64,000 bases of DNA from Thermodesulfobacteriota bacterium (GTDB taxonomy: Bacteria > Desulfobacterota > BSN033 > UBA1163), in assembly GCA_049514515.1 (NCBI GenBank), contig JBEKUZ010000014.1, forward strand, positions 2,955-66,954. The letters run 5' to 3'. The position numbers and the translations under genes were made by a program. This document shows positions 15,563 to 30,842 of the stretch, one piece after another. Within the stretch, counting starts at the first letter, position 1. Each line of letters begins with the position of its first letter. Below the pieces are notes generated by a model. The model was not told the DNA's origin and searched no databases. It worked only from the letters and a program-made list of their open reading frames with translations.

Positions 15563-15593
15563 TGACAGATTTTTCCCTGGGGTTTTATAATTT
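15563..15593 (+). promoter_or_regulatory. near-consensus sigma70 promoter (TTGACA, 17-18 nt spacer, TATAAT)
   Basis: cTTGACAgatttttccctggggttTTATAATtt, located about 330 nt upstream of the metF2 ATG. Confidence 0.55.
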
Positions 15594-15922
15594 AGTATTC
15601 TTATTCCTCACGCCCTTAAAAATACCCGTTCTTTTGGGCAATCGATTCATAAAATTAGAGCATTGGCGGTAGAGGGGACGATGTCTTGCACCGAGAAAGT
15701 CCTCGGTTCCGCATTATCCGCTTTTTCGCTCGGGGCGTCGGTCAGAATGTGATGTCCCCTGCCCCTCGAGAGGATTGGATAATGAAGCTTCCCGGCCACA
15801 GGCCGCGGCTTCCCGGGGAAGAAATATCGTTTTGATTGTGCCCCCTTGACCCCGCCTACAAGGCGGGGCTTACGGGGCACTTACCGGTCGCCTCCCTCAA
15901 ATTGGGAGAGAGGAGAAAGCCC

Positions 15923-16798
15923 ATGACATTTAAGGAACGATTGGATTCGGGAAAATTCGCAGTCGTCGTCGAGCTCCAGCCTCCTAAGGGAAGCGACGTC
16001 TCCGAGTTGTACGACTATGCCGAACTCTTCAAAGGGCGCGTGGATGCGATCAACGTGCCAGACCTCCAGAATGCCATCATGAGGCTGGGATCCCTTTCAG
16101 TATGCACCCTGCTAAAGGCAAAAAAGGGGATGGAGGTGATCTACAATCTCTCCTGTAGCGACCGGAACCGATTGGCACTGCAATCCGAACTCTTAAACGC
16201 CTCCACTCTGGGCCTCAAGAACCTCTTCCTCGTCCACGGCGATCAACCCTCTACCGGGGATCACTTCGAAGCCAAAGCGGTCTTTGATCTCGACGTCATG
16301 GGTTTGCTCGGCGCGGCCAAGCGTCTCCAAGAAGGCTACGACCTCGCAGGGAATGATCTTCAAGGAAAACCAAAATTCTGCGTAGGCACCCACATCAACG
16401 CCGCCGCGAAAGGTCATGTCCTCGACCTAGAGGTCATGGACATGGAGAAGAAGATACGGATGGGAGTTGATTTCTTCTTCACCCATTCGATCTACGATGC
16501 AAGCCTTTTTGAGGCCTTCGCCAAAAAAGTGGCACACTTCAAGGTCCCCATCATCGCTGGCATCACCCTGCTCAAATCAGTGGGCATGGCCCGCTATGTA
16601 AACAAGCATGTGGAGGGAGCTTCCATCCCGGATTCAGTCATCGACCGAATGATGAAGGCGTCGGATAAACAGCAGGCAAGCGTTGAGATCGCCGGGGGTC
16701 TGATCAAGGCGTTGAAACCACTCTGCCAAGGAGTCCAGATCATTCCCATCGGATGGGAAAAACAGGTCCCCGCGCTCCTGGATTATGCAGGACTGTAG
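15923..16798 (+). CDS. divergent MetF-family methylene-THF reductase-like protein (copy 2, orphan)
   Basis: 291 aa with a MetF fold but much lower identity to copies 1 and 3. SD gagaggag precedes the ATG at 15923. The upstream in-frame extension from 15836 has no SD and overlaps a structured leader. Confidence 0.75.
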   Translation: MTFKERLDSGKFAVVVELQPPKGSDVSELYDYAELFKGRVDAINVPDLQNAIMRLGSLSVCTLLKAKKGMEVIYNLSCSDRNRLALQSELLNASTLGLKNLFLVHGDQPSTGDHFEAKAVFDLDVMGLLGAAKRLQEGYDLAGNDLQGKPKFCVGTHINAAAKGHVLDLEVMDMEKKIRMGVDFFFTHSIYDASLFEAFAKKVAHFKVPIIAGITLLKSVGMARYVNKHVEGASIPDSVIDRMMKASDKQQASVEIAGGLIKALKPLCQGVQIIPIGWEKQVPALLDYAGL

Positions 16799-16847
16799 AA
16801 TACACACTCAGCGTCTCACTCTCCTCTCCCCGTAAGGGGGAAGGGCT

Positions 16848-19313
16848 ATGGAAGGGGTGAGGACCGAAGGGTTACCTTGTTTTCCTGTCAACCCGAAGGA
16901 AATAGGCTACCCCGGGACGGTTATGACTGTCAAAAAACCAACTGCGCCGACAAAAAGAAAGAAACCGCCCGAGCCACTTATCCTTGTCAAGAAGAAGGAG
17001 GTGGGCTCAGAGATGTTTCAATCCATCGCCGAATTGGGAAACGACGGGATCTTAGTATTTGATGATCGCTATCAGATCCAATTTGCAAATCGGATGGCTT
17101 CCGAAATCACCGGATATTCGAGCCGAGAGTTGCTGAAAATGTCGGTCCTCTCCCTTTTAGGCAAGCCCCATCCATCCTTTGTCGAAGACCTCTTCAGCCA
17201 TCCTGAACGTTATGGCGAGAAAACGTGCGCCGAGGTTCAGCTTTGCACCTCTCGTGAAGAGATCAAAGAGGTCGAGATTTGTATTGCCTTGGCGGAGGCA
17301 CCCCAAGGAGCCCGGAAGGGCTATGCCTACCTCCAAGATATTACGGAGTCGAAAAGAATGGAGCGGCGGATCCGGGAGGCCACCCAACAATTCGAGAAAA
17401 TCGCTGAGATGGGGGACGATGGAATCCTGGTCTTCGATCAGACGTTTAAGATCATTTTTGCCAATCAGATGGCCTCCGAAATCACCGGGATTCCCAAGAA
17501 AGAATTGATCGGAAGAAATTTCTTCTCGGTCATTGGAAAAGAGAACAAACAATTTCTTGAGGGAACGGTCACCCGCGGTGTGGGAATAGGCGAGAAGCTC
17601 TGCACCGAAATGAATATCCTGACCTCCCAGGGGCAGGTCAAGGATGCAGAGGTTTGTATTGCTTTGGCCGAGTCGGATACGGGAGAGGTTAAGACCTATG
17701 CGTACATCCGGGACATCACAGACCGGAAAAAATTCGAGAGGGACCTCAGGGATTCTGGGGAAAAACTCAGAGACCTCTTCGAAAGGGTGAGGCATGGTCT
17801 CTTCATCAGCTCGAAGGAGGGCAAGTTTTTGGACTGTAACCAGGCCCTGCTCGATATGCTGGGATATCCTACGAAAGAAGAATTTCTCAAAATAGATATC
17901 ACCCAGGATCTCTACGTCAACCCGGAGGATCGGAGAGCTTTTCAGGAGAGGATCGAAAGAGAGGGGCATGTCAAAGACTTGGAGGTGGAATTCAGAAAGG
18001 GGAACGGGGACAGGATCACCGTCTTGCTGACCTCTCACCCGATCAAGAATGAGAAGGGAGAGGTCGTCGGCTACCAGGGGATCAACCTGGATATCTCCGA
18101 GAGAAAGCGGATCGAGAATCAACTTCGCGAAGCCAATGAATTCTTCATGAACCTGATCGAGAGTTCCGTGGATGGGATCATCGCGGCGGACATGAAAGGC
18201 AATATCTTCATCTTTAACAAAGGAGCGGAGGCGCTGACCGGATACAAGGCAGAGGAGGTGATCGGCAAGCTCCATATTACCAAGATCTACAAAGAGGGCG
18301 TGGCGAAAGAAATCATGAAGAAACTCCGAAGCCAGGAATACGGGGGGGTAGGAAAATTTATTCCCACCCAGATGAACGCGGTCAATAAGTTTGGGAAAGA
18401 AATCCCCATTCAGCTCTCCGCCGCCCTCATCTATAACGGGAGCGGCCAGGAAATCGCCAGTGTGGGTATCTTTACGGATTTGAGACCCCGCCTGAACATG
18501 GAAAAGAAGCTCCAAGAGACCCACCTGCAACTAGTCAGTTCCGAGAAGATGGCGTCTCTCGGAAAACTGGCAGCGGGAATCGCCCATGAGATCAACAACC
18601 CTTTGGGTGGAATTCTTATTTACTCCAGTCTGATGATGGAGGACCTTCCCGAGACGGATTCGCGGCGGGCAGATTTGGTTCGAATCGTTCAGGAGGCAGG
18701 CCGCTGTAAGGAGATCGTCAAGAGCCTCCTTGAATTCGCTCGCCAAACCGAACCGAAGATGGAACCCACTGACATCAATCGAGCCATTACGGACGGACTC
18801 TTCTTCCTGGTGAATCAGGCTTTATTCCACAACATCCATATCGTGAAGAAACTCGACGCCTTCCTGCCCTTCGTCCGCGGAAATGCAAGCCAATTGAAAC
18901 AAGTCTTCATGAATATTATCGTGAATGCGGCAGAAGCGATGCGCGGCGGCGGAACGCTGACCATCACGACCTTCTGTGCCCCGGATCAGAAGACGGTCTT
19001 TGTGGAGTGTACCGATACCGGGGAGGGCATTCCCCCGGAGAACCTCACCCGAATCTTCGATCCCTTCTTCACCACCAAGGAGGTGGGAAAGGGGACGGGG
19101 CTGGGACTCGCCACTTCTTATGGAATCGTTGAGGACCACGGGGGAAAGATCAGCGTAAAAAGCCAGGCGGGTGAAGGCACCACGTTTACCATCGAGCTTC
19201 CCGTTCATCACGAAACGCAGGCGATCCTGGAAAACCCTTCCATTCAAGATCGAGGAGCATATGACGGAACTGAACGCACGGGAAAACCAGAAGGCAAATC
19301 CCTTCCTGTCTGA
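16848..19313 (+). CDS. cytoplasmic multi-PAS sensor histidine kinase (about 4 PAS, HisKA, HATPase_c)
   Basis: Repeated PAS blocks (GILVFD...FAN.MASEITG seen twice), an H-box AHEINNPLGGI, and G-boxes DTGEGI / GTGLGLA. No TM segment. The start is uncertain: 16848, 16923 or 17010. Confidence 0.8.
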   Translation: MEGVRTEGLPCFPVNPKEIGYPGTVMTVKKPTAPTKRKKPPEPLILVKKKEVGSEMFQSIAELGNDGILVFDDRYQIQFANRMASEITGYSSRELLKMSVLSLLGKPHPSFVEDLFSHPERYGEKTCAEVQLCTSREEIKEVEICIALAEAPQGARKGYAYLQDITESKRMERRIREATQQFEKIAEMGDDGILVFDQTFKIIFANQMASEITGIPKKELIGRNFFSVIGKENKQFLEGTVTRGVGIGEKLCTEMNILTSQGQVKDAEVCIALAESDTGEVKTYAYIRDITDRKKFERDLRDSGEKLRDLFERVRHGLFISSKEGKFLDCNQALLDMLGYPTKEEFLKIDITQDLYVNPEDRRAFQERIEREGHVKDLEVEFRKGNGDRITVLLTSHPIKNEKGEVVGYQGINLDISERKRIENQLREANEFFMNLIESSVDGIIAADMKGNIFIFNKGAEALTGYKAEEVIGKLHITKIYKEGVAKEIMKKLRSQEYGGVGKFIPTQMNAVNKFGKEIPIQLSAALIYNGSGQEIASVGIFTDLRPRLNMEKKLQETHLQLVSSEKMASLGKLAAGIAHEINNPLGGILIYSSLMMEDLPETDSRRADLVRIVQEAGRCKEIVKSLLEFARQTEPKMEPTDINRAITDGLFFLVNQALFHNIHIVKKLDAFLPFVRGNASQLKQVFMNIIVNAAEAMRGGGTLTITTFCAPDQKTVFVECTDTGEGIPPENLTRIFDPFFTTKEVGKGTGLGLATSYGIVEDHGGKISVKSQAGEGTTFTIELPVHHETQAILENPSIQDRGAYDGTERTGKPEGKSLPV

Positions 19314-19830
19314 AGTGGCTCAGGCCAGCGGCGAAAAAATTAGCGCCTGTTTTCAATGCCAGAAATGTTCGGCAGGATGTCCCATCGCTTATGCGATGGA
19401 TGTCCTCCCCAATCAAATGCTCCGTCACATCCAGTACGGCCATCGGGAAAAGGTCCTCACCTCAAACACGATTTGGATCTGCGCCTCCTGCTACACGTGC
19501 AGCGTTCGATGCCCGAATAACATCGATATTGCCAAAATCATGGATACATTAAGAGCGCTGGCCGTGCATTCTGAATTCAAACCCGGAGAAAAGGATATCC
19601 CCATTTTCCACTCCGCTTTTTTAGACACAATCAAATCAAGAGGCCGGATTCACGAGCTCAGCCTCATCCTCCAATTTAAATCCAAGACGAAAGATTTTTT
19701 TAAGGATGCTGCCTTGGGATGGAAGATGTACCGCAAGGGGAAGATTAAACTGCTGCCGTCGAAATTTTGCGGTGGAAAAAAAGAGGTTAAGGAGATTTTC
19801 AACGCTTTTGAGAAAGGAGCGAGACAATAA
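19261..19830 (+). CDS. hdrC: heterodisulfide reductase subunit C
   Basis: CFQCQKCSAGCP and CASCYTCSVRCP motifs in about 189 aa. SD gaggag precedes the ATG at 19261. The gene overlaps the 3' end of the histidine kinase gene by about 53 nt. Confidence 0.85.
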   Translation: MTELNARENQKANPFLSEVAQASGEKISACFQCQKCSAGCPIAYAMDVLPNQMLRHIQYGHREKVLTSNTIWICASCYTCSVRCPNNIDIAKIMDTLRALAVHSEFKPGEKDIPIFHSAFLDTIKSRGRIHELSLILQFKSKTKDFFKDAALGWKMYRKGKIKLLPSKFCGGKKEVKEIFNAFEKGARQ

Positions 19831-19975
19831 AGCACCAAATCCCAAGCACCAAACCCCAAACAATGACCAAAGCTCCAATGACCGAAATGTGTGGGTTGGG
19901 TCATTTGGGCATTGCTTATTGTAATTTATTTGGGATTTGGAATTTGGAGATTGGGATTTGAATTGCTGAGGAAGA
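19831..19975. repeat. long imperfect hairpin of CCAAATCCCAA / TTGGGATTTGG degenerate repeats (hdrC-hdrB spacer)
   Basis: The left arm is ccaaatcccaagcaccaaaccccaaa...aatgacc. The right arm is ggtcatt...atttgggatttggaatttggagattgggatttg. Confidence 0.75.
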
Positions 19976-19980
19976 TAAAA

Positions 19981-20832
19981 ATGAAAGAGGTCTCTTACTA
20001 TCCTGGATGCTCCCTTCACGGAACCGCCCGAGAGTACGATGATTCAATCCGAGGCGTATCCAAACTCCTCGATATTCAGCTCTACGAATTAGAGGATTGG
20101 ACCTGTTGCGGGGCGAGCTCAGCCCACTGCACGGATGAAAAGCTGGCCATCGATCTCGCCGCCCGGAATCTTGGTCTCGCCGAAAAGAACGATCGCGACT
20201 TGCTGGTCCCGTGTGTGGCATGCTACAGCCGATTTAAGGCAGCGGAGAAAGAGGTCAAGGAACACCCGGAAAAAGTCCATCTTTCCTACCACGGCAATGT
20301 CCCCATTCGATATGCACTGGACTTTTTCTGCGACGATGGCATCTTAGAAGAGGTGAAAAAAAAGCGCGCAAAGTCCCTCTCAGGGCTTAAGGTGGCTTGC
20401 TACTACGGTTGCCTTACCGTTCGACCTCCAAAAATGACAGGCGTGCGGGAATATGAGAACCCTCAACATATGGACCGATTGATGAAAACCCTGGGCGCTG
20501 ATCCTGTTCCATGGTGCTACAAAACCGATTGTTGTGGAGCCAGTCTCGTGATGACGCGGACAGACATCGTTAAGAAATTGAACGACCGCCTCCTCTCCAT
20601 GGCAATGGAGGCCGAGGCGGACTGTTTGGTCACGGGCTGTCCGATGTGTCAGGCCAATCTCGATACCCGCCAGGGAGAATTGGAGAAGGAGACGGGCAAG
20701 AGATACAATCTCCCCATCCTTTACTTTACGGAATTGATGGGGTTGGCCCTGGGTCATAAAGATGTCAGGAAATGGCTTCACCGGCACATCACAGACCCCA
20801 TGAAGATATTGAGTGCGAAGGGATTAATGTAA
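19981..20832 (+). CDS. hdrB: heterodisulfide reductase subunit B (two CCG domains)
   Basis: CCGAS motif present twice, in Cys-rich CCG-domain context. SD gaggaag precedes the ATG at 19981. Confidence 0.85.
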   Translation: MKEVSYYPGCSLHGTAREYDDSIRGVSKLLDIQLYELEDWTCCGASSAHCTDEKLAIDLAARNLGLAEKNDRDLLVPCVACYSRFKAAEKEVKEHPEKVHLSYHGNVPIRYALDFFCDDGILEEVKKKRAKSLSGLKVACYYGCLTVRPPKMTGVREYENPQHMDRLMKTLGADPVPWCYKTDCCGASLVMTRTDIVKKLNDRLLSMAMEAEADCLVTGCPMCQANLDTRQGELEKETGKRYNLPILYFTELMGLALGHKDVRKWLHRHITDPMKILSAKGLM

Positions 20833-20839
20833 TCAAATG

Positions 20840-20990
20840 CGTAAAATTCCAAGTACCAAGCACCAAATTCCAAATAAGCACCAATGTTCGAAATACGAAT
20901 TTACTAAACGAGAAAGTTTTGAATTTTGATATTGGAATTTGGGATTTGTTTGGGATTTGGAATTTGTGATTTGGAATTTAAAACGACCCA
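20840..20990. repeat. second CCAAAT(T/C)CCAA / TTGG(A/G)ATTTGG hairpin repeat block (hdrB-hdrA spacer)
   Basis: ccaagtaccaagcaccaaattccaaat ... attggaatttgggatttgtttgggatttggaatttgtgatttggaattt. Confidence 0.75.
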
Positions 20991-21013
20991 AAGAAAAGCC
21001 GCCGGAGTCAGGA

Positions 21014-24000
21014 ATGATGGGAGACCAAATGCAAGAAAAAGCTGGAGATAAAGTAGGAGCAGTGATGGTCGTCGGAGGTGGGATCGCCGGGATCCAAGCA
21101 TCCCTCGACCTCGCCGAATCTGGCTACTATGTCTATCTGGTGGAGTCGTCGCCTGCGATTGGCGGGGTGATGGCCCAATTGGATAAGACCTTCCCCACGA
21201 ACGACTGCTCCATGTGCATCATCTCTCCCAAGCTGGTCGAGGCAGGCCGTCATCTTAACATTCGTATCCTGACGGCCACCGATGTCGAAGGGATCTCAGG
21301 CGAGCCAGGAAATTTTACCGTCCGCCTTCATCAACATGCCCGCTTTGTGGACACGGCCAAATGCACGGGATGCGGTGATTGTGCAGCCGCCTGTCCCATC
21401 ATCCGTCCCGATGAGTTCAACGCCCTGCTCTCCACGCGCAAGGCGATCTACAAAAAATATCCCCAAGCCATCCCGAATGCCTTCGCCATCGAAAAACGTG
21501 GCGAAGCGCCATGCCGTAACGCCTGTCCGATTGAACAGCGCGCCATGGGCTATGTCGCACTCATCCGTGAGAAACGCTTTGCCGATGCGTACCGAACCAT
21601 CAAAGAAGATAACCCTTTCCCTTCCGTGTGCGGACGCGTATGCAACCACCGGTGTGAGGAGGCTTGCACGCGAACCGAGGTGGGAAGTGAACCCGTCAAC
21701 ATCATGCATTTCAAACGTTTTGTGAGCGACTGGGCATTCGCACATCCTGAAGAGATCCAGAAGGTGTACGCGTCGGGGGTCCAGAAAGCTCCGGATACCA
21801 GTGGAGCGGGGAAAAAAGTCGCCATTGTCGGCGCTGGTCCAGCGGGGTTGACCGCGGCCAACGACTTGATCCGTAAAGGTTACTCCGTGACCGTCTTCGA
21901 AGCGCTGCCTGCACCGGGTGGAATGATGCGCGTAGGCATCCCGGAATATCGCATGCCCTATGACTTGCTCCAATGTGAGATAGATGAAATCATCTCAAGA
22001 GGGGTGGAACTGAAGCTGAACCACCGCGTGCAAGATGTGACAGGGTTGCTCGAAGATTTTGACGCGGTCTTTGTTGCAGCAGGCGCTCATATTGGCATTA
22101 AGCTCCCTATCCCTGGAAATGACCTGCCCGATGTTCACATCACCACAGACTTCTTGCGCGAGGTCAGCCTTTCAGGAGCATCAAACATCAAATCAAAAAT
22201 TGCGAATAAACGCATCTTGGTCCTCGGTGGCGGGAATGTAGCCATTGATGCGGCTATGTCTTCAGTGCGAATGGGCGCAAGCTGGGTGGGCATGTCTTGC
22301 CTTGAGAGTCGAGAAAAAATGCCTGCCCACGATTGGGAAGTCCGTGACGCTCAGGATGAAGGCATTGATGTCTATCCCGGCCGAACGTTCAAGGAGGTAA
22401 CAAACAAAGACGGGTATATCACAGGCGTACGAACCGTCGACGTGGATTTCCGAGGCTTTATTGAAGGCCGGCCTGATTTTGACGAGATCCCCGGGACAGA
22501 GACAGTCATTCCTTGTGATGTGGTTATCTTTGCCATCGGCCAGAGGCCTGACCTTACTTTGTTGAGCAACAAGGTAGAGACGGTGCGCGGCCGGACAGTA
22601 GCGGCTGATAAAGACACACTTGCGACCAATGTGCCGGGGATTTTTGCTGGCGGCGATGTGGTCACGGGAACAACTTTTGTCGTGGATGCCATCTCTGCAG
22701 GACACAAGGCAGCGCGCTCGATTGAAGCCTACCTGAAACAGGAAGAGAAAGAAGCAAGGATATGGCCGCCGGTTTTAGAATCCATCGAAAAGCTCCCCGA
22801 GGCTAAACTCGAACCATCTCAGGCAAAACAGCTCATGGAGGTCAAGTCACAAGCTGCTCGTGCAGTCCCTAAAAAGCGTGAAGCGGGCGAGCGCAAGGGC
22901 GATTTTTCAGAAGTGGAATCAGGGCTGACCGAAGAAGAAGTGATCGAGGCAGCCAGGCGATGCCTGGAATGCGGCATCTGCTCCGAGTGTCTGCAGTGCG
23001 TCTTCGCCTGCCGTGCGGGGGCCGTCAATCATGATGACCGCGAGAAAATCGTTGACCTCCAGGTCGGAGCGGTCATTCTGACACCCGGGTTTAAAACCGT
23101 GGACGGAAATATTCGGCCCGAATTCGGCTACGGTGTCTACCCAAATGTCGTCACAAGCATCGAGTTCGAACGGATGCTCAGTGCCAGCGGCCCTTATGCC
23201 GGTGTGGTCCAGCGTCCTTCGGATGCAGGACACCCGCGAAAGATCGCTTTTATCCAGTGTGTCGGAAGCCGCGATATCTCTTGTGGACAGGATTACTGTT
23301 CATCCGTGTGCTGCATGTACGCGACGAAAGAGGCCATCATTGCCAAAGAACATGCCAATTTTGTCGAGCCCACCATCTTTTATATGGATGTCCGGGCTTA
23401 TGGGAAAGGGTTCGATGCGTATTATGAGAGAGCAAAATCCGAATACGGCGTCCGGTTCATCAAGTGTATGGTCTCCAGAATTAGGGAGCATTTTAAAACA
23501 AAAAATCTCCTGGTGACTTACCTGGATGAAGAAGCCAAGTTCGTGGAAGAGGAATTTGATTTGGTCGTTCTTTCTGTAGGCATGGTCCCATCCAAGGAAA
23601 CGGTTGAGATGGCGAAACGGATGGGCGTTGAGGTGGAGTCTCATGGATTCTGCAAGACAAAACCTTTCGAGCCCACCTCGACATCCAAACCAGGCGTCTA
23701 CGTCTGCGGGGTGTTTCAAGGGCCGAAAGACATCCCGGAAACGGTCTCTCAGGCAAGCGGTGCCGTGGCCGATGCCACAGGACTGATCGCTTCGGCACGG
23801 GGAACCATGGTCACCAAAAAAGAATATCCTCCCGAGGCGGATGTGACAGCGGAAGAACCCCGCATCGGCGTCTTCGTCTGCAATTGCGGCATCAACATCG
23901 GAGGCGTGGTCAATGTGCCTGAAGTCAGGGAGTACGCGAGGACACTGAAAAACGTCGTCCACGTTGAGGACAATCTCTACACCTGTTCCCAGGACACCCA

Positions 24001-25531
24001 GGGAAAAATCAAGAAAGCGATCGAAGAGAATCACCTGAATCGTGTCATTGTGGCCTCCTGTTCTCCAAGGACGCATGAACCGATGTTTAGAGAAACCTGC
24101 CGGGAGGCGGGATTAAATAAATACCTCTTTGAGATGGCAAACATCCGCGATCAATGTTCCTGGGTCCATATGCGGCAGAAGGATGAAGCGACGCTTAAGG
24201 CGAAGGACCTTGTCCGCATGGCCGTGGCCAACGCCCGCCTGATCCGAGCTCTCAGTGAAGTCGGATTGCCGGTGATCCAAAAAGGATTGGTCATCGGAGG
24301 AGGAGTGGCCGGGATGACCGCTGCGCTCAAGCTCGCAGAGCAAGGATACGAGATCTTCCTCCTCGAGAAAGAAGCCCAGTTAGGAGGAAATCTGAGAAAC
24401 CTTCACTATACCCTCGAAGGTCAAAATGTCCAGACCTTCTTAAAAGATTTGATTAACCGGGTCACGAACCATCCTCTGATCCATGTCATCACCAATGCCT
24501 TGGTGGTCGATTTCAGCGGCTCCAAAGGAAACTTCTCCACCGGAGTGATGGTGGCGCCTACCATGTATTACCGGAAGATTGAACATGGCATAACAATCTT
24601 GGCCACCGGCGCTCAAGAATGGAAACCAAACGAATACCTCTATGGCGAAGACCCGCGCGTTGTCACGCAGCTTGAATTAGAGAGTCGGATTGTCAATCAA
24701 CCCGAAGAGGTGGCCCGGGCCAATCACATTGTAATGATCCAATGTGTAGGGTCCCGGAACAAGGAGCGACCCAACTGCAGCCGAACTTGCTGCGCAACCG
24801 CCGTGAAGAATGCTCTTAAGATCAAAGAGCTGAACCCTAACGCCAATATCTCTATCCTCTACCGGGATGTGCGGACCTATGGCCTTGCAGAATCCTACTA
24901 CGCGAAAGCCCGGGAGCAAGGCATCCTGTTCATCCGATACGAACCGGAAGAGAAACCCGAAGTCAAGAAGGATGGGGAAGGTCTCCTTGTCTCCTATCTG
25001 GATAGAATCTTGAAAGAACGGATGGAGATAAGGCCTGACTTCGTGGTTCTTTCCGCAGCCACCATTCCGAGAGAGAATGAAGAATTGGCAACGATGCTGA
25101 AGGTCCCTCGTACGATGGAAGGTTTCTTTTTGGAAGCCCATATGAAGTTGAGGCCTGTTGACTTTGCAACCGATGGCATGTATCTTGCTGGTGGGGCCCA
25201 CGGACCGAAATTGATCAGCGAAACGATCACTCAGGCAAGTGCAGCAGCGTCTCGAGCCTGTACCATCTTATCCAAAGAGAAGATGCTGGTGGGCGGTGTG
25301 GTCGCCATGGTGGAGGGCGAGCGGTGTGCGGCCTGTTTGACGTGTGTAAGGGTTTGCCCTTATGAAGTCCCTGTGATCAATGTGAAGGGCGAGGCGGAGA
25401 TTGATCTGGCCAAGTGCAAAGGCTGCGGCAGTTGCGCGGCCGAGTGCCCGGCCAGAGCGATAGAGTTGATGCACTTCAGAGATCCCCAACTGTGGGCCAA
25501 GTGCGAAGCCCTTGTGGAAGCAAGTGTATGA
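21014..25531 (+). CDS. hdrA: giant HdrA-family flavoprotein: HdrA module, inserted GltD-like NAD(P)H:FeS oxidoreductase module, second HdrA module, C-terminal 2x[4Fe-4S]
   Basis: About 1505 aa. N-terminal VVGGGIAGIQASLDLA (FAD). GltD-like block PCRNACP...CGRVCNHRCEEAC / KVAIVGAGPAGL / ILVLGGGNVAIDAA. The HdrA Cys motif IQCVGSRD and a second copy (VIGGGVAGMTAALKLA ... IQCVGSRN). Terminal ferredoxin CxxCxxCxxxCP appears twice. Confidence 0.85.
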   Translation: MMGDQMQEKAGDKVGAVMVVGGGIAGIQASLDLAESGYYVYLVESSPAIGGVMAQLDKTFPTNDCSMCIISPKLVEAGRHLNIRILTATDVEGISGEPGNFTVRLHQHARFVDTAKCTGCGDCAAACPIIRPDEFNALLSTRKAIYKKYPQAIPNAFAIEKRGEAPCRNACPIEQRAMGYVALIREKRFADAYRTIKEDNPFPSVCGRVCNHRCEEACTRTEVGSEPVNIMHFKRFVSDWAFAHPEEIQKVYASGVQKAPDTSGAGKKVAIVGAGPAGLTAANDLIRKGYSVTVFEALPAPGGMMRVGIPEYRMPYDLLQCEIDEIISRGVELKLNHRVQDVTGLLEDFDAVFVAAGAHIGIKLPIPGNDLPDVHITTDFLREVSLSGASNIKSKIANKRILVLGGGNVAIDAAMSSVRMGASWVGMSCLESREKMPAHDWEVRDAQDEGIDVYPGRTFKEVTNKDGYITGVRTVDVDFRGFIEGRPDFDEIPGTETVIPCDVVIFAIGQRPDLTLLSNKVETVRGRTVAADKDTLATNVPGIFAGGDVVTGTTFVVDAISAGHKAARSIEAYLKQEEKEARIWPPVLESIEKLPEAKLEPSQAKQLMEVKSQAARAVPKKREAGERKGDFSEVESGLTEEEVIEAARRCLECGICSECLQCVFACRAGAVNHDDREKIVDLQVGAVILTPGFKTVDGNIRPEFGYGVYPNVVTSIEFERMLSASGPYAGVVQRPSDAGHPRKIAFIQCVGSRDISCGQDYCSSVCCMYATKEAIIAKEHANFVEPTIFYMDVRAYGKGFDAYYERAKSEYGVRFIKCMVSRIREHFKTKNLLVTYLDEEAKFVEEEFDLVVLSVGMVPSKETVEMAKRMGVEVESHGFCKTKPFEPTSTSKPGVYVCGVFQGPKDIPETVSQASGAVADATGLIASARGTMVTKKEYPPEADVTAEEPRIGVFVCNCGINIGGVVNVPEVREYARTLKNVVHVEDNLYTCSQDTQGKIKKAIEENHLNRVIVASCSPRTHEPMFRETCREAGLNKYLFEMANIRDQCSWVHMRQKDEATLKAKDLVRMAVANARLIRALSEVGLPVIQKGLVIGGGVAGMTAALKLAEQGYEIFLLEKEAQLGGNLRNLHYTLEGQNVQTFLKDLINRVTNHPLIHVITNALVVDFSGSKGNFSTGVMVAPTMYYRKIEHGITILATGAQEWKPNEYLYGEDPRVVTQLELESRIVNQPEEVARANHIVMIQCVGSRNKERPNCSRTCCATAVKNALKIKELNPNANISILYRDVRTYGLAESYYAKAREQGILFIRYEPEEKPEVKKDGEGLLVSYLDRILKERMEIRPDFVVLSAATIPRENEELATMLKVPRTMEGFFLEAHMKLRPVDFATDGMYLAGGAHGPKLISETITQASAAASRACTILSKEKMLVGGVVAMVEGERCAACLTCVRVCPYEVPVINVKGEAEIDLAKCKGCGSCAAECPARAIELMHFRDPQLWAKCEALVEASV

Positions 25532-25612
25532 GTTCGGAGTTCAGAGTTCGGAGTATCTGGTTTTGTCTCCGAACTCCGAGCTAAATTACTCCCAACTATA
25601 AATAGAGGGTTG
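25532..25612. repeat. about 80-nt hairpin element (GAGTTCGGAGTTCAGAGTTCGGAGT...TCTCCGAACTCCGAGC + CTAAATTACTCCCAACTAT); copy 1
   Basis: Near-identical copy at 26866-26960. The arms are inverted repeats. Confidence 0.8.
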
Positions 25613-25614
25613 AG

Positions 25615-26133
25615 ATGGAGGCAGTTCAGCGGAAAATGGAATCAGGGCACGGGCCGCAAAGGACGGACACGGATCACGGACACGGACACGTTTTTGAGCC
25701 CGAGGTCCTGGCCTTTTGCTGTGAGCATTGAGCCTACAGTGCGGCGGACCTGGCAGGTTCGATGAGGCTCAACTACCCTACGAACGTGAAGATTGTGAAG
25801 GTTCCCTGCACAGGGAGAGTGGATATCCTCCTCATTCTCCATGCCTTTGAATCAGGGGTGGATGGAGTTTACCTGGCAGGGTGCTTGGAGGGAGAGTGTC
25901 ATTTCTTGAGAGGTAATTTAAGGGCCAAGAAGAGAGTTCAGTATGCGAAGAAATTATTAGATGAGGTAGGATTAGGAGGGGCTCGACTAGAGATGTACAA
26001 CATGAGCTCGGCTCAAGGTCAGCGTTTTGCCGAGGTCGCCCGTGAGATGACAGAGAAAATAAAAGCCTTGGGGCCGTCACCCGTTAAGAACAGGGTCCGA
26101 GGGGTCCAGGATTCTAGGGGTCAAGTGAAGTAA
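25615..26133 (+). CDS. mvhD: MvhD/FlpD-family [2Fe-2S] protein with in-frame UGA (predicted selenocysteine) at 25729-25731
   Basis: The ORF track calls only 25762-26133, which begins inside the conserved MvhD core (NVKIVKVPCTGRVD...GCLEGECHF). Reading upstream in frame gives ...FEPEVLAFCCEH-TGA-AYSAADLAGS, which aligns with the MvhD N-terminal motif EPKIVGFLCNWCSYAGADLAG. The TGA falls on the conserved Cys. The ATG at 25615 has a GAGGG SD. Confidence 0.65.
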
Positions 26134-26172
26134 TTAAAAAAAAACTTGAACCCTCGAACCCTTGAATTCTTG
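26126..26172. repeat. tandem degenerate CTTGAA(C/T)CC repeats in the mvhD-metV2 spacer
   Basis: cttgaaccctcgaacccttgaattcttgaatcc. Confidence 0.6.
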
Positions 26173-26194
26173 AATCCTTTCATTGGAGGTTAGA

Positions 26195-26863
26195 ATGATC
26201 GTAGCGAATCGCAAATCACTGGAAGAAATCCTTAACATGCTCAAGCCCTACAAGAAGGTCCTTCTATTGGGTTGTAATGAGTGTGTGACAGTATGTGCCG
26301 CTGGGGGTGAAAGAGAGGTGGGGGTTCTGGCCTCAGAACTAAAGCTCTCCCGTGCCAAGGATGGCCAGGAGATCGAGATCAAAGAGCAGACCCTGGAGCG
26401 TCAATGTGACCATGAATACATTGACCAAGTCCGTCCTTTTGTGGGAGACTATGAGGTGATCTTATCGATAGCCTGTGGGGCTGGGATACAATATGTGGGA
26501 GAGAAATATCGGACGAAAATCGTCCTTCCTGGGGTCAACACGACCTTTCTTGGAGTCACCCTGGAGCAGGGGGTCTGGAGTGAGCGGTGTCAGGGGTGCG
26601 GGGAGTGTGTACTGCATATGACCGGAGGGGTCTGTCCGATCGCTCGGTGTGCGAAGAGTCTGCTCAACGGGCCTTGCGGGGGGTCTTCGAATGGGAAGTG
26701 CGAAGTGGACAAGGATCTGGACTGTGGTTGGCAGTTGATCATCGACAGGCTTAAGGAACTCAATCAATTGGATCGCTATGAGGAGATCATCCCGGTGAAG
26801 GATTGGACGACCTCTCGGGATGGGGGACCGCGCAAGAGGCTGAGAGAAGACTTGAGGTTATAA
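26195..26863 (+). CDS. metV: MetV-type small subunit of methylene-THF reductase (copy 2)
   Basis: Same Cys motifs as copy 1 (GCNECVTVC, CQGCGECV, CPIARCAKSLLNGPCGG). SD ggaggt precedes the ATG at 26195. Confidence 0.8.
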   Translation: MIVANRKSLEEILNMLKPYKKVLLLGCNECVTVCAAGGEREVGVLASELKLSRAKDGQEIEIKEQTLERQCDHEYIDQVRPFVGDYEVILSIACGAGIQYVGEKYRTKIVLPGVNTTFLGVTLEQGVWSERCQGCGECVLHMTGGVCPIARCAKSLLNGPCGGSSNGKCEVDKDLDCGWQLIIDRLKELNQLDRYEEIIPVKDWTTSRDGGPRKRLREDLRL

Positions 26864-26865
26864 GT

Positions 26866-26960
26866 TATGAGTTCGGAGTTCAGAGTTCGGAGTGAAGAAC
26901 TCAAAAAAATCAAAAACTCCGAACACCGAACTAAATTACCCCGAACTATCTTTAAGGGTA
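26866..26960. repeat. about 80-nt hairpin element, copy 2 (GAGTTCGGAGTTCAGAGTTCGGAGT ... AACTCCGAACACCGAACTAAATTACCCCGAACTAT)
   Basis: Duplicate of 25532-25612. Confidence 0.8.
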
Positions 26961-26964
26961 AAAG

Positions 26965-27888
26965 ATGAAGACGAAGTCGAACATTGAGCGAATATTAGAA
27001 AGTGGTGGGTTTGTGGTGACATCGGAGTGCGGGCCGCCGAGGGGAGCGGATCCGGAGGTAATCCGAAAAAAAGGGAATCTGCTCAAGGGGGTGGTGGATG
27101 CCGTCAATGTCACGGACAATCAGACCTCAGTGGTGAGAATGAGCTCCTTTTCATCCTGTATCATCCTCAAAGAGATGGGGTTTGATCCGATCCTGCAGAT
27201 GGTCTGTCGGGACCGGAACCGGATAGCGATCCAGAGTGACATCTTGGGGGCAGGGGCCTTGGGGATCAACAACATTCTCTGCCTCTCGGGGGACCATCAG
27301 AAATTTGGGGATCATCCGAAGGCAAAAAATGTCTTTGATATAGACTCCATCCAGTTAATCAATACGGTCAAGATCCTAAGAGATGATGGGAAATTTCTGG
27401 GGGGTGAGGAAGTCAAAGGAAAACCCGTACTCTTCATTGGGGCTGCGGAGAATCCCTTTGCGGACCCGTTTGAGATCCGGGCAGCGAGATTAGGGAAGAA
27501 AGTGAAGGCGGGGTGTGAATTTATCCAGACCCAGTGTATCTACAACATGGAAAAGTTTACCAAGTGGATGGAGATGGTGAGGGATCGGGGGCTACACGAG
27601 AGGTGTGCGATCCTGGCAGGGGTGACGCCGTTTAAGTCGGTCGGGATGGCGAAATACATGAAGAATTCGGTGCCCGGGATGGACGTGCCGGATGGGATGA
27701 TCGAGAGGATGAAGGGGGTGGCCAAGGAGAAGCAGTCGGAGGAAGGGATCAAGATCTGTGTGGAGACGATTCAGAAGCTGAGGGAGATCCCTGGGGTGCG
27801 GGGGATCCATATCATGGCGATCGAGTGGGAGGAGAAGGTGGCAGAGATCGCTCAGAGTGCAGGACTGCTGCCAAGACCGCAAGTATAA
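26965..27888 (+). CDS. metF: 5,10-methylenetetrahydrofolate reductase, acetogen-type (copy 3)
   Basis: 307 aa, about 65% identical to copy 1 over its full length. Follows metV2 as in the hdrCBA-mvhD-metVF arrangement. Confidence 0.88.
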   Translation: MKTKSNIERILESGGFVVTSECGPPRGADPEVIRKKGNLLKGVVDAVNVTDNQTSVVRMSSFSSCIILKEMGFDPILQMVCRDRNRIAIQSDILGAGALGINNILCLSGDHQKFGDHPKAKNVFDIDSIQLINTVKILRDDGKFLGGEEVKGKPVLFIGAAENPFADPFEIRAARLGKKVKAGCEFIQTQCIYNMEKFTKWMEMVRDRGLHERCAILAGVTPFKSVGMAKYMKNSVPGMDVPDGMIERMKGVAKEKQSEEGIKICVETIQKLREIPGVRGIHIMAIEWEEKVAEIAQSAGLLPRPQV

Positions 27889-27892
27889 ACAG

Positions 27893-27955
27893 ACGTGACC
27901 GTGGTACGTGTCACGTGTCCGCAAAAGATCAAACCCCACGGACACGGTCACGATG
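27893..27955. repeat. hairpin GACGTGACCGTG..CGTGTCACGTGTCCG / CGGACACGGTCACG (same family as 7381)
   Basis: gacgtgaccgtggtacgtgtcacgtgtccg...acggacacggtcacg. Confidence 0.7.
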
Positions 27956-27975
27956 AAAAAAGGAGGGGCAAAAAG

Positions 27976-28359
27976 ATGGCAAAGAAGATTTTGATCGTTG
28001 ATGATGATCCGGATTTGGTGGAAGCAGTAACCATGATCTTAGAATCTAAGAAATATGACGTGGCCGCTGCCTATGGCGGGATCGAGGGTCTTCAAAAAGC
28101 TAAGACCGAAAAACCGGACCTTATCGTTCTCGATGTCATGATGCCGGACAAAGATGGATACATCGTGTGCAAGGAATTGAAGGCCGATTCCAAGCTGAGC
28201 AAGATCCCGGTGCTTCTGCTGACGGCAGTGGTCTCCAAGATTTCTACGACCCGCTACACACAACAAATGGGAATGGAAACCGAAGCAGACGATTATATCG
28301 ACAAGCCCGTAGAGCCGGAAGTATTGGTGAAACGGATCGAAGCCCTTTTGTCGAAATGA
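27976..28359 (+). CDS. single-domain CheY-like response regulator (receiver only)
   Basis: MAKKILIVDDD...DVMMPDKDG...K with conserved Asp and Lys positions. SD aaaggagggg. Confidence 0.8.
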   Translation: MAKKILIVDDDPDLVEAVTMILESKKYDVAAAYGGIEGLQKAKTEKPDLIVLDVMMPDKDGYIVCKELKADSKLSKIPVLLLTAVVSKISTTRYTQQMGMETEADDYIDKPVEPEVLVKRIEALLSK

Positions 28360-28371
28360 AATGTCGAATGC

Positions 28372-28458
28372 CAAATTCCCTGCCTTCGCCGGAGCGCCTG
28401 CCCTCCGCAAGGCTTCTGGAGGCGGGGCTTCGCGCAGGCAGGCAAATGCCAAAGGAAT
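28372..28458. repeat. large imperfect palindrome flanked by AATGCCAAA (CCCTGCCTTCGC...GCGCAGGCAGG)
   Basis: Directly follows the response-regulator gene stop; may act as a terminator or operator. Confidence 0.5.
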
Positions 28459-28489
28459 GACAAATGTTTAAGTCTCAAGATACTTTTAA

Positions 28490-28552
28490 TTTGAACTTTG
28501 GAATTTGAACTCGGTTTGAACTTTGAGTTTTGACATTTGACATTTTGTATTG
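28490..28552. repeat. tandem TTTGAACT/TTTGACA degenerate repeats
   Basis: tttgaactttggaatttgaactcggtttgaactttgagttttgacatttgacatttt. Confidence 0.6.
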
Positions 28553-28561
28553 AGGCCGAAG

Positions 28562-30064
28562 ATGCCAGACCAGGCAAACATCCTCGTCATTGACGATGAG
28601 CAAATCATGAGGGATGGCTGCTCACGCATCCTCTCAAGAGACGGATGCTCTGTCCTCTGCGCTGATAACGGAAGCCAGGGATTGGAGGAGATCAAGAGCC
28701 ATCCCGAGAAGATGGATGTCATTCTCCTCGATCTCATGATGCCTGGCATGAGCGGAATGGAAGTGCTGGATCACATTCGGACTTTCGATCCCAACCTTCT
28801 CGTGATCGTCATCACCGGTTATGCCACCGTAGAATCGGCCGTGGAGGCGATGAAGAAGGGGGCTTACGATTTCATCCCCAAACCTTTCACGCCGGACCAG
28901 CTCCGCATCGTGGTCAGAAGGGCGTTGGAGAGGAGAACCCTCCAGAAAGAAACAGAGTTCCTGCGGAGAGAACGGGAGAAATCCCTTCGGGATATCGCCA
29001 CGGAAAAGTCGAAGATCAAAACCATCATCAATTGCATGGGCGACGGGGTCTTGGTGTGCGATCGGGACAGCTGCATTGTCCTCTCGAATCCAGCGGCCAG
29101 TCGGATGCTGAAGACCTCTGAGACTCTTCTGCTCGGAAATTACCTCAATCAGTGTAACCTCCCCTCTGAGTTGTCCAAGATCATGGAAGAAAGTCTTCAG
29201 GCAAAAGACATGAGCTATGCTTCTGTTTCGCAGGAATTGAGCGCCGGCGAGTCTGGAGATATCTTTCTCCGTGCCCATACAGCCCTTGTACGAAACGATA
29301 TCGGTGAGATTATGGGTTCTGTCACCGTGCTCCAAGACATCAGCCATCTCAAAGAACTCGATAGGATGAAATCAGAGTTTATTGCCATGGTCACCCACGA
29401 GCTTCGGGCCCCAATCGCCGCGGTCGAACAGCAGTTGACCGTCATCCTGAATAAAATGGCCGGCGACGTGACGGAGAAGCAGGAACAGCTTCTTTCCCGT
29501 GCCAAACAGAGAACAAGAGGTCTTCTCGACCTGATCAAAGATCTCCTGGATCTTTCCAAAATCGAAGCAGGAAAGATGGTCCAATACAAAGAGCCCCTCC
29601 TCCTTCAAGAGGTGATCCAAAGAGTGGTGGATTTGATGAGGGCCGAGGCGGAAAACAAAAAGATCGATCTTCAATTCTCCACGCCTCCCAAGTTATCCTT
29701 AATCAATGCAGATCGCAACAGTATGGAGGGAATCTTTACCAACCTCATCTCCAATGCCATCAAATATACCCCCGAGGGAGGAAAGGTTTGGGTCGCTCTC
29801 GGTGAAGAGGGCGGATTTGTGAAGGCGACCGTCTCTGACACAGGCATTGGCATTAAGAAAGGAGATCTTGGCAGAATCTTTGATAAATTTTACCGAGTGA
29901 AGTCCACAGAGACCCGTCAGATCGTCGGGACTGGTCTCGGACTTTCTATTGTCAAGAGCATCGTGGATGCCCATCTTGGATCTATCTCCGTTGAAAGCGA
30001 GGAGGGAAACGGAACCACCTTCATCCTCCTCCTGCCCAAAGAATTGAATCCGGCCCCTTGCTAA
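28562..30064 (+). CDS. hybrid sensor: N-terminal receiver (REC), PAS, HisKA and HATPase_c histidine kinase
   Basis: NILVIDDE...DLMMPGMSG (REC); H-box THELRAPI; ATP-lid GTGLGLSIV. Confidence 0.85.
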   Translation: MPDQANILVIDDEQIMRDGCSRILSRDGCSVLCADNGSQGLEEIKSHPEKMDVILLDLMMPGMSGMEVLDHIRTFDPNLLVIVITGYATVESAVEAMKKGAYDFIPKPFTPDQLRIVVRRALERRTLQKETEFLRREREKSLRDIATEKSKIKTIINCMGDGVLVCDRDSCIVLSNPAASRMLKTSETLLLGNYLNQCNLPSELSKIMEESLQAKDMSYASVSQELSAGESGDIFLRAHTALVRNDIGEIMGSVTVLQDISHLKELDRMKSEFIAMVTHELRAPIAAVEQQLTVILNKMAGDVTEKQEQLLSRAKQRTRGLLDLIKDLLDLSKIEAGKMVQYKEPLLLQEVIQRVVDLMRAEAENKKIDLQFSTPPKLSLINADRNSMEGIFTNLISNAIKYTPEGGKVWVALGEEGGFVKATVSDTGIGIKKGDLGRIFDKFYRVKSTETRQIVGTGLGLSIVKSIVDAHLGSISVESEEGNGTTFILLLPKELNPAPC

Positions 30065-30338
30065 CCCCGTTAGAAATTCGAGTGGGTACTAAACCCCGCC
30101 GCAATCATATTTACAATGTAATCCCGCTAGAGGAGGGCTCCGTAGGAGCTGCGCATTATTTCTAACGAGGTAAATACAAACAATCATAAAATCTGGATCC
30201 CTCAGAAGATACTTAGCGGTCAACTCTCGCAAGGTTCGGCGATCTGTTGGCCGGAGGTGGAGGATTCGAGAAAAAAAGATTAAGAGAACTCTTGTTTTTG
30301 GAGGCTGAATTCGTTATTTCAAATGAATCGAGGCAAAG

Positions 30339-30842
30339 GTGAACAACGAAGAAACAGAGATTAAAGAAAAAACCAGAGCCATCTTAGAGGGCTTAGAGAG
30401 CAATAGAGAAAATCTCATACCCATTCTGCAGAAGATCCAGGAAGAGTTGGGATATCTTCCTCCCTATGCCATGATCGAGGTGGCCCGGTTTCTTAACATA
30501 CCGGAGATCGATGTCTACAGTGTAGCTACCTTCTACAACCAGTTTCGTCTCACGCCTCCTGGTAAACATTCCATAAGAGTTTGCATGGGAACTGCCTGCC
30601 ATGTGAAGGGCGGCCACATCGCTTTAGCAGCCTGGCAAAGGAGATTGAAAATAGGTCCAGGCGAAACTTCCCCTGACCGCGAGTTTGACCTCGACACAGT
30701 GGCCTGTGTGGGCTGCTGCGCCATGGCACCCGTGACCGTTGTGGATAAGAAAGTGGAAGCCAAAGCCGATCCGACGAAGGTAGACGGAATCCTTCTCTCC
30801 TATCAGCTCCAAAAAGAAAAAGAAGAAAAGGAAAACAATTGA
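30339..30842 (+). CDS. NuoE/HoxE/HndA-like thioredoxin-fold [2Fe-2S] subunit
   Basis: Cys pattern C..GTACHVKG ... CVGCCAMAP. The GTG start is preceded by aggcaaagg. Confidence 0.8.
   Translation: MNNEETEIKEKTRAILEGLESNRENLIPILQKIQEELGYLPPYAMIEVARFLNIPEIDVYSVATFYNQFRLTPPGKHSIRVCMGTACHVKGGHIALAAWQRRLKIGPGETSPDREFDLDTVACVGCCAMAPVTVVDKKVEAKADPTKVDGILLSYQLQKEKEEKENN

Follow-up and report, generated by a model that had tools for sequence, protein, structure and literature searches.

The HdrCBA-MvhD-MetVF methylenetetrahydrofolate reductase (MTHFR) of Moorella thermoacetica was reportedly described by Mock et al. 2014. Its HdrA subunit, encoded within hdrCBA-mvhD-metVF, is a 162.8 kDa protein in which the N-terminal ferredoxin and thioredoxin reductase (TrxR)-like domains are interrupted by a GltD domain, while residues 922-1487 comprise an MvhD-like, a TrxR-like and a C-terminal ferredoxin domain without an inserted ferredoxin domain; glutamate/lysine (E/K) pairs of the 'bifurcating flavin' type are found at E696/K750 and E1204/K1246 (Kremp, Roth and Mueller 2022, PMC9430772). 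Here we analyze a 64,000-nucleotide (nt) stretch of a contig from a peat Thermodesulfobacteriota bacterium (JBEKUZ010000014.1; hereafter the window), which carries a gene for an HdrA-like protein of 1505 amino acids (aa), the giant HdrA. We consider it very likely that this gene encodes the HdrA subunit of a predicted Moorella-type (type IV, Hdr-type) HdrCBA-MvhD-MetVF MTHFR.

The giant HdrA shares with Moorella HdrA (Moth_1194) the same six-gene operon, the size class (1505 versus 1487 aa), the GltD interruption of the N-terminal ferredoxin and TrxR-like domains, and an E/K pair in both TrxR-like domains (here E719/K772 and E1223/K1265). Moorella residues 922-1487 correspond to aa 945-1505 here, with the same domain composition. 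This likeness is drawn through published domain coordinates and crosses phyla, Thermodesulfobacteriota here versus Bacillota for Moorella. The two systems also differ in the probable selenocysteine of MvhD here, in a count of nine [4Fe-4S] clusters by motif as against the eight stated for Moorella HdrA (PMC9430772), and in physiological direction, which here may be oxidative (acetyl-CoA oxidation) rather than acetogenic.

Related proteins have been described under other names. HdrL, named in Desulfobacterium autotrophicum HRM2 (Strittmatter et al. 2009, PMC2702500) and also present in Syntrophobacter fumaroxidans (Sedano-Nunez et al. 2018, PMC5947623), is a large protein related to HdrA, to which an NADH-binding module resembling glutamate synthase is fused; mvhD, often a selenoprotein gene, comes next. 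The giant HdrA fits this definition, with HdrA and a GltD-type NADH domain in one polypeptide and mvhD next to it. The described HdrL loci adjoin dsrABC, fdh or hdrABC, whereas metVF stands here (the two are likened by description), and some HdrLs carry selenocysteine or a fumarate-reductase-like region in HdrL itself. In anaerobic methanotrophic (ANME) archaea, HdrA9-11 of ANME-1 have an NfnB-like insertion of ~500 aa in the inserted ferredoxin domain, as here, and the fused HdrA3/4 show a complementary N-terminal domain and Cys197, implying an intramolecular heterodimer, again as here; these archaeal proteins are linked to FdhAB/HdrBC, whereas MetVF is the neighbor in the window (Chadwick et al. 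2022, PMC9012536). MetF(V)-HdrABC clusters have also been noted in Wood-Ljungdahl loci of Desulfobacterota (PMC10553843). The architecture is thus already published, and the giant HdrA is an ordinary member of a widespread, described class. The novelty implied by an initial annotation of the window, made from sequence alone, gives way to these descriptions of Moorella HdrA (PMC9430772), HdrL (PMC2702500) and ANME-1 HdrA (PMC9012536).

Architecture of the giant HdrA

The giant hdrA is a genuine, intact gene. Translation of the window gives an uninterrupted plus-strand reading frame at 20939-25531, in which the ATG at 21014 is preceded 6 nt upstream by GGAG (21004-21007) and followed by 1505 codons with no internal stop, up to TGA 25529-25531. 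Exactly the same 1505-aa product is found on 20 contigs, including two Joint Genome Institute (JGI) peat metagenomes and two NCBI metagenome-assembled genomes, and its neighbors are identical across those JGI and NCBI assemblies. Giant HdrAs are unbroken on contigs of megabase size and on chromosomes (one contig of 6.9 Mb, OY761459.1 and OY762209.1), in complete genomes of cultured Desulfoscipio, Desulforamulus and Desulfotomaculum, and in cultured Pelotomaculum and Desulfotruncus. More than 110 of the best 120 protein clusters hold full-length homologues of 1485-1550 aa with 56-96% identity, from sources labeled Acidobacteriota, Smithellaceae, Syntrophales, Chloroflexota and Thermodesulfobacteriota.

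The protein consists of three flavin modules and, by cysteine-motif count, up to nine [4Fe-4S] clusters. In HdrA module 1, the first part bears the flavin adenine dinucleotide (FAD) motif GxGxxG (aa 21-26, within GGGIAGIQASLD, aa 21-32), a DCSMC motif whose C68 is the equivalent of Cys197 of methanogen HdrA (5odc_A alignment, offset +129), and the first half of the inserted ferredoxin domain with the CxxCxxCxxxCP motif CTGCGDCAAACP (aa 117-128). The second part holds the other half of that ferredoxin domain, CSECLQCVFAC (aa 656-666, C656-C666), and the remainder of the TrxR-like FAD domain with IQCVGSRD (aa 747-754), the cluster cysteines C749/C762/C766/C767 and E719/K772, equivalents of methanogen E356/K409. 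Module 2 begins with an N-terminal domain whose cysteines C956, C958, C991 and C1016 are invariant, continues with a TrxR-like FAD domain (motif VIGGGVAGMTAALKLA, aa 1093-1108; IQCVGSRN, aa 1242-1249; C1244/C1255/C1259/C1260 and E1223/K1265), and ends in a ferredoxin domain with two CxxCxxCxxxCP motifs at aa 1438-1479 (cysteines C1438-C1448 and C1468-C1478). Module 2 has no inserted ferredoxin domain, HdrA2 model positions ~234-314 and 5odc_A residues 236-319 being without counterpart, and in the 5odc_A alignment it has no cysteine at the 194/197 positions, so no Cys197 equivalent. An identity of aa 945-1085 with Pfam FlpD (MvhD) was rejected: the region has no Pfam match and fits HdrA models 1-132.

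On these alignments, the NfnB/GltD-like module is nested inside HdrA module 1's inserted ferredoxin domain, sitting between CTGCGDCAAACP and CSECLQCVFAC. The insertion point is pinned by the closest species-level relative among the best 80 loci of a genome scan (L009; uncultured delta proteobacterium MFD04408.bin.2.108, 5451-16704), whose operon has two hdrA genes. One encodes a giant HdrA of 1480 aa with the GltD module, 52% identical to the window protein (42% in the GltD part). The other encodes a GltD-less double HdrA of 1016 aa in which the two module-1 parts are directly joined as an uninterrupted ...YPQAIPKVFLIDREKCIGCGLCERVC... and which is 73-83% identical to the window protein outside the insertion; a selenocysteine-type mvhD and metV follow. 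The NADH module therefore appears to have been recently gained, lost or exchanged. The same double-HdrA backbone, without the GltD module and with a continuous inserted ferredoxin domain, is shared by this paralogue and by Sporomusa ovata HdrA (942 aa).

The AlphaFold2 model of aa 1-1200 is confident (predicted local distance difference test 85.8, predicted template modeling score 0.79), and Foldseek aligns it with the HdrA core 8rwn_A at a TMt of 0.95 over 920 alignment columns, spanning the insertion. No solved structure of any giant HdrA was present in the PDB copy searched. At the NCBIfam equivalog level the cut-offs are missed (HdrA2, 969.4 versus 1100; other HdrA models, 706.2 versus 1400 and 665 versus 1300), so by profile score the protein is HdrA-like and no heterodisulfide-reductase equivalog.

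The inserted module retains what an NAD(P)H:FAD/[4Fe-4S] unit needs in motif terms. Its Fer4_20 region (aa 163-243; 75.5 bits versus a Pfam cut-off of 25.8) contains PCRNACP (aa 166-172) and CGRVCNHRCEEAC (aa 206-218), and Pyr_redox_2 scores 186.9 bits against a cut-off of 26.1. The FAD Rossmann motif G273xG275xxG278 lies in KVAIVGAGPAGL (aa 268-279) with E296, the NAD(P)H Rossmann motif G405xG407xxA410 in ILVLGGGNVAIDAA (aa 401-414), and the GG-D motif at aa 546-548 (G547-D548). The FAD and NAD(P)H motifs are intact and invariant across 82 homologues. A degenerate GltD module was considered and rejected, because its eight cluster cysteines are all conserved, as are the glycine, acidic and GD motifs. 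Here too the NCBIfam equivalog level is missed (PRK12771, 512.5 versus 516; TIGR01316, 312.6 versus 471.75; TIGR01317, 237.4 versus 447.7). The module matches PDB entries of NfnB (4ylf_B, 5jca_L), StnC (8oh5_C) and 9bov_A; to these NfnB and StnABC/NfnABC large subunits, 9n5u_A included, it shows 33-36% identity and a root-mean-square deviation of 3.0-3.6 A, and Foldseek aligns the model with NfnB at a TMt of 0.77-0.80. Unlike NfnB, it is no free subunit and is without an NfnA-type partner.

Relative to NfnB/GltD, the module is permuted: the N-terminal ~45 residues of NfnB (RRNFEEV...RCLQC) are found here after the flavin core. The displaced segment, aa 616-653 (...FSEVESGLTEEEVIEAARRCLEC), fits Fer4_20 profile positions 2-31 and TIGR01317 positions 10-50, and the resulting order is collinear with the solved NfnABC/StnABC large subunits 9bov_A, 8oh5_C and 9n5u_A.

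The bound nucleotide can be narrowed from NAD(P)H to, probably, NADH. After the second Rossmann strand the giant HdrA has C429-L-E431-S, conserved in at least 90% of the 82 homologues, where 4ylf_B has Y-R-R-T and 9bov_A, 9n5u_A and 5vj7_A have YRRT, YRRS and YRRG. We take the Arg-Arg motif in YRRT of 4ylf_B to be the contact with the NADPH 2'-phosphate, and an acidic residue after the second Rossmann strand favors NADH over NADPH. The preference is read from the acidic E431 standing where NfnB has Arg-Arg, and it agrees with the NADH activity of Moorella HdrA.

These results bear on several points of the initial annotation. Its single open reading frame (ORF) of about 1505 aa is borne out by the unbroken frame and by the same product in independent assemblies. 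Every motif that it quoted is present in the translation at the positions given here, and the terminal 2x[4Fe-4S] region that it described corresponds to the two motifs at the C-terminus. Its central proposal, a pyridine-nucleotide site fused in cis into the HdrA of an MTHFR operon, also stands on the intact, invariant GltD-like motifs; a lack of FAD or NAD(P)H residues in the GltD block, which it held would refute the proposal, was looked for, and the residues are all present. The linear order of HdrA, GltD and HdrA has to be replaced by the nested arrangement on the evidence of the profiles, 5odc_A and the L009 paralogue, and IQCVGSRD, placed by the annotation ahead of the GltD block, lies after the module (aa 160-653). 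The block that it called complete is so in its motifs and not in its order, given the RCLQC segment after the flavin core. Its NAD(P)H dependence keeps the nucleotide site in the narrower form of probable NADH binding.

Conservation extends over both HdrA halves. In ten homologues from different phyla, 38 cysteines are conserved, 37 of them invariant and C206 in 9/10, which is enough for the nine clusters counted above; in the 82 homologues the cysteines within aa 1-1200 are likewise conserved, with C206 in at least 90%. The ten-sequence alignment has E719, E1223 and K1265 invariant and K772 nearly so; across the 82 sequences E719 never varies and K772 is kept in at least 90%. Both FAD domains thus keep the E356/K409-type pair that marks bifurcating HdrA flavins. 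All four domains of Methanothermococcus thermolithotrophicus HdrA (5odc_A), its FAD site, E356/K409, Cys197 and cluster cysteines map residue by residue onto the giant HdrA, which distributes the four domains over two unlike modules of a single chain.

This split is complementary. Module 1 has the only inserted ferredoxin domain and C68 and is without an N-terminal domain, while module 2, which has no Cys197 equivalent, contributes the N-terminal cluster domain and the sole C-terminal ferredoxin domain. Between the two protomers of methanogen HdrA, Cys197 of one serves as a ligand to the N-terminal-domain cluster of the other, and in fused or tandem HdrAs Cys197 and the N-terminal domain occur complementarily (PMC9012536). 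The complementarity seen here matches that rule for fused HdrAs (PMC9012536). On this mapping the giant HdrA is an intramolecular version of the methanogen HdrA homodimer, its two halves predicted to complement each other like an obligate heterodimer.

Operon context and occurrence in other genomes

Pfam searches of each ORF give the operon order hdrC-hdrB-hdrA-mvhD-metV-metF (Table 1), all on the plus strand with gaps of 60-230 nt, as the initial annotation had it. The operon lies in a Wood-Ljungdahl cluster with RACo, cooC, folD, acsD, acsA, acsB, acsC and acsE.

Table 1 Features of the MTHFR operon and domains of the giant HdrA (window coordinates).
Feature	Position	Strand	Details
hdrC-like gene	19261..19830	+	189 aa; Pfam Fer4_17, Fer4_8; gene call in L001-L004
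hdrB-like gene	19981..20832	+	283 aa from ATG 19981; Pfam CCG, two stretches
hdrA (giant)	21014..25531	+	1505 aa, coordinates with stop codon; open frame, translation, independent gene calls, homologues
HdrA module 1, first part	21053..21490	+	aa 14-159; HdrA2 model 139-285; 5odc_A residues 146-290, offset +129
NfnB/GltD-like NAD(P)H:FAD/[4Fe-4S] module	21491..22972	+	aa 160-653; Pfam, NCBIfam, PDB alignments, Foldseek
Permuted segment of that module	22859..22972	+	aa 616-653, ...RKGDFSEVESGLTEEEVIEAARRCLEC; aligns to 4ylf_B residues 4-42, 5vj7_A residues 11-47
HdrA module 1, second part	22973..23845	+	aa 654-944; HdrA2 model 284-562; 5odc_A alignment
HdrA module 2, N-terminal (MvhD-like) domain	23846..24268	+	aa 945-1085; HdrA2 model 1-132; 5odc_A residues 2-140
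HdrA module 2, TrxR-like FAD domain	24269..25288	+	aa 1086-1425; HdrA2 model 133-233, then 315 onward
C-terminal 2x[4Fe-4S] ferredoxin domain	25289..25528	+	aa 1426-1505; Pfam Fer4_7, Fer4, Fer4_10; 5odc_A residues 567-649
mvhD, probable selenoprotein gene	25615..26133	+	172 aa; in-frame TGA 25729-25731; Pfam FlpD; read-through translation
metV	26195..26863	+	222 aa; Pfam DUF5981 / MTHFR C-terminal; gene call
metF	26965..27888	+	307 aa; Pfam MTHFR 138.9 bits; NCBI name methylenetetrahydrofolate reductase

Two gene calls in the operon differ from the starts listed here. The hdrB call begins at GTG 19891 and gives 313 aa; this GTG and the sequence up to 19965 lie inside the hdrC-hdrB hairpin, and the first 30 codons of the call translate the repeat. 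Starting at the ATG behind GAGGAAG yields 283 aa, as long as HdrB of L005 and L009. For mvhD, the call yields 123 aa from 25762, whereas translation from ATG 25615 through the in-frame TGA reads ...FEPEVLAFCCEH-U-AYSAADLAGSMRLNYP... over 172 aa. Among 65 homologous loci this position is occupied by Cys in 47, by TGA in 17 and by Ser in one. We conclude that mvhD is probably a 172-residue selenoprotein gene that gene callers have shortened, and its read-through would explain the apparent 230-nt gap after hdrA. A hairpin resembling a selenocysteine insertion sequence is present after the mvhD TGA and is indistinguishable from shuffled sequence (z -0.47).

Scanning species-representative genomes gave at least 600 matches, and locus counts refer to the best 80 loci. 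In 54 of these, one alignment covers a collinear full-length giant HdrA. The gene is adjoined by mvhD in 48/54 full-length loci, and metV and metF lie within 4 kb in 23/54; where flanks are adequate (35 loci), metVF is present in 18 and absent from 14. The six-gene order hdrC-hdrB-hdrA-mvhD-metV-metF recurs in L001-L005 and in many GTDB loci, across phyla. Loci without metVF (L008, L011, L014, L061 from Smithella sp. SCADC, and others) have mvhD, often with hdrCB downstream.

Predicted function and alternative readings

We assign the giant HdrA to type IV MTHFR because its domain map, its 5odc_A and 4ylf_B alignments and its AlphaFold2 model agree with published Moorella HdrA, and also because of the operon order, the Wood-Ljungdahl context and the conserved motifs. 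In Moorella, HdrA is the NADH-oxidizing subunit and MetF provides the methylene-tetrahydrofolate (methylene-THF) site (PMC8760232), and a physical interaction of Hdr-like subunits with MetVF is known from both Moorella and Sporomusa (PMC9430772; PMC8760232). By homology to the Moorella enzyme, the giant HdrA would oxidize NADH and MetF would reduce methylene-THF.

Along the low-potential branch of methanogen HdrA, electrons leave the bifurcating FAD, cross the N-terminal-domain cluster and then the inserted ferredoxin domain, and reach ferredoxin or polyferredoxin (PMC13518236; PMC9012536). Because the giant HdrA has a single N-terminal-domain cluster and a single inserted ferredoxin domain, and the latter carries the NADH module, the pyridine nucleotide would be wired into this branch: the NADH module caps the domain through which methanogen HdrA delivers electrons to ferredoxin, and MetVF replaces CoM-S-S-CoB as the partner. 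NADH would reduce the FAD of the GltD-like module, from which electrons could pass through the two clusters of that module, the two inserted-ferredoxin clusters and the N-terminal-domain cluster to an HdrA FAD, and onward through the cluster of the TrxR-like domain, HdrC, HdrB and MetV to the MetF flavin and methylene-THF. In acetyl-CoA oxidation electrons would run the opposite way. A port for a third redox partner may be formed by the C-terminal ferredoxin domain together with the probable selenoprotein MvhD, and the overall reaction would be flavin-based bifurcation or confurcation, located at the NfnB-like flavin, an HdrA flavin or both of these. The initial annotation went further in predicting ferredoxin coupling, a claim that the Moorella enzyme does not bear out, as ferredoxin involvement could not be confirmed for that complex (PMC8760232; PMC13040438). 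Since three flavins have bifurcation-type environments (the NfnB-like FAD and both E/K-bearing HdrA FADs), bifurcation or confurcation might take place twice in series within one chain, with a partner possibly encoded nearby; we regard this as rather unlikely.

The HdrA modules might instead act as an electron wire in a non-bifurcating NADH:methylene-THF oxidoreductase, like the RnfC2-MetVF type III enzyme. The reduction of methylene-THF by NADH is exergonic, which makes coupling unneeded, non-bifurcating HdrA homologues exist (PMC9430772), and the third partner has gone unidentified since 2014 (PMC8760232; PMC13040438). However, the Moorella complex alone shows no methylene-THF-dependent NADH oxidation (PMC8760232), and both HdrA FAD sites of the giant HdrA keep the E/K signature, so that we consider a mere wire improbable.

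A still smaller probability attaches to a generic HdrL-type oxidoreductase that would work with HdrBC to pass electrons from NADH to a disulfide or DsrC, the adjacent metVF then marking no physical MTHFR complex. The 14 loci with adequate flanks that have hdrA-mvhD, often with hdrCB, and no metVF would suit such an enzyme, as would the two CCG domains kept by HdrB and the role in DsrC or sulfite reduction proposed for HdrL in sulfate reducers (PMC2702500; PMC5947623). Yet metV and metF directly follow mvhD on the same strand inside the acs/folD cluster, the six-gene order recurs across phyla, and Hdr-like subunits bind MetVF physically in Moorella and Sporomusa. The weakest alternative takes the single ORF for an artifact in which hdrA, a gltD-like gene and hdrA were merged by an assembly error or by a frameshift that went undetected. 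It draws on general caution alone, as the window stems from a metagenome-type assembly, and is rejected as having a negligible probability in view of the identical protein on 20 contigs of separate JGI and NCBI assemblies, the full-length homologues, the unbroken copies on megabase contigs, chromosomes and complete cultured genomes, and the nesting of the GltD block within one domain, which a simple gene join could not yield.

Several observations nonetheless weigh against the type IV MTHFR assignment. About 40% of giant-HdrA loci with adequate flanks (14/35) have no metVF nearby; judged by these neighborhoods, the giant HdrA is not exclusive to MTHFR and apparently serves other acceptor modules besides MetVF. 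The Moorella homologue itself is found neither among the best 80 loci nor among the top 120 matches of two protein searches, the second of which started from the Desulfotruncus arcticus homologue and gave many Desulfotomaculia, and the match to it rests on published domain coordinates together with Bacillota homologues such as that of Desulfotruncus arcticus DSM 17038 (49% identity, collinear over 1491 aa). [quoted passage not shown] Finally, the assignment of cysteines to clusters and the electron path are ones that we infer. On balance, the HdrA subunit of a Moorella-type MTHFR is still the reading that we favor.

Surrounding genes and repeats

Genes on both sides of the operon encode further redox proteins. 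Directly upstream (12252-16798, plus strand), a second MTHFR-related gene set begins with metF-1 (307 aa), followed in order by a protein of 219 aa that has some five hydrophobic helices and a weak NarI-like Pfam match (E 0.006), an HdrC-like 2x[4Fe-4S] protein of 137 aa, an exported tetraheme cytochrome c3 of 135 aa (signal peptide, four CxxCH), a metV-like gene of 239 aa and metF-2 (291 aa), which brings the cluster to three metF and two metV copies. By its gene content, this set may encode a membrane- or cytochrome-linked MTHFR. Downstream of metF and after two-component genes, 30339-33557 (plus strand) carries NuoE-like (2Fe-2S thioredoxin-like), NuoF-like (Complex1_51K) and NuoG-N-terminal-like genes, which may encode an NAD(P)H-linked diaphorase module of the hydrogenase or formate dehydrogenase type. 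In the rather unlikely reading of two serial steps within one chain, the third redox partner of the predicted MTHFR could be encoded by the upstream module of membrane protein, HdrC-like protein and cytochrome c3, or by the downstream NuoEFG-like genes. If true, either candidate would link methylene-THF reduction to the quinone or cytochrome pool.

A PAS-rich histidine kinase (16848-19313, plus strand) stands ahead of the operon, and a response regulator and a hybrid kinase follow metF (27895-30064, plus strand), a response regulator after metF being found also in L005. This arrangement suggests a two-component system dedicated to the control of the MTHFR operon. A single minus-strand ORF of 952 aa (53383-56241) joins an aldehyde:ferredoxin oxidoreductase (AFOR_N, AFOR_C) and an iron-containing alcohol dehydrogenase (Fe-ADH, ADH_Fe_C) in one fusion protein.

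The gaps of the operon contain long hairpins (19828-19965, 20840-20985, 25529-25600 and 26866-26945) built of motifs with a period of ~7 nt, GGAATTT/GGGATTT or GAGTTCG. Their minimum free energies reach down to -48 kcal/mol, with z-scores of -3.8 to -7.0 for the folded gaps, the mvhD gap not among them. A similar repeat run occurs in the gap after mvhD (26140-26185), further elements lie at 12201 and 28365-28507, and the elements after hdrA and after metV begin with the same 27 nt. The sequence GGAATTTGGNATTTG, allowing at most two mismatches, occurs 10 times against 1.04 expected. Nine of these 10 sites lie between genes of the acs/MTHFR cluster, with 20857 marking the complementary arm of the hairpin between hdrB and hdrA; the remaining site (28365) falls on the stop codon of the downstream response-regulator gene. 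An Rfam scan of 11000-31000 gave no match, and promoter and terminator scans of the operon stayed at background level.

Taken across genomes, the Moorella-type enzyme is spread beyond acetogens to Thermodesulfobacteriota, Acidobacteriota, Chloroflexota, Planctomycetota and others, and the class is found in hundreds of genomes, including those of cultured Desulfotomaculia. Natural pairs of HdrAs with and without the GltD module, sharing ~80% backbone identity, could guide work on the reaction of type IV MTHFR.

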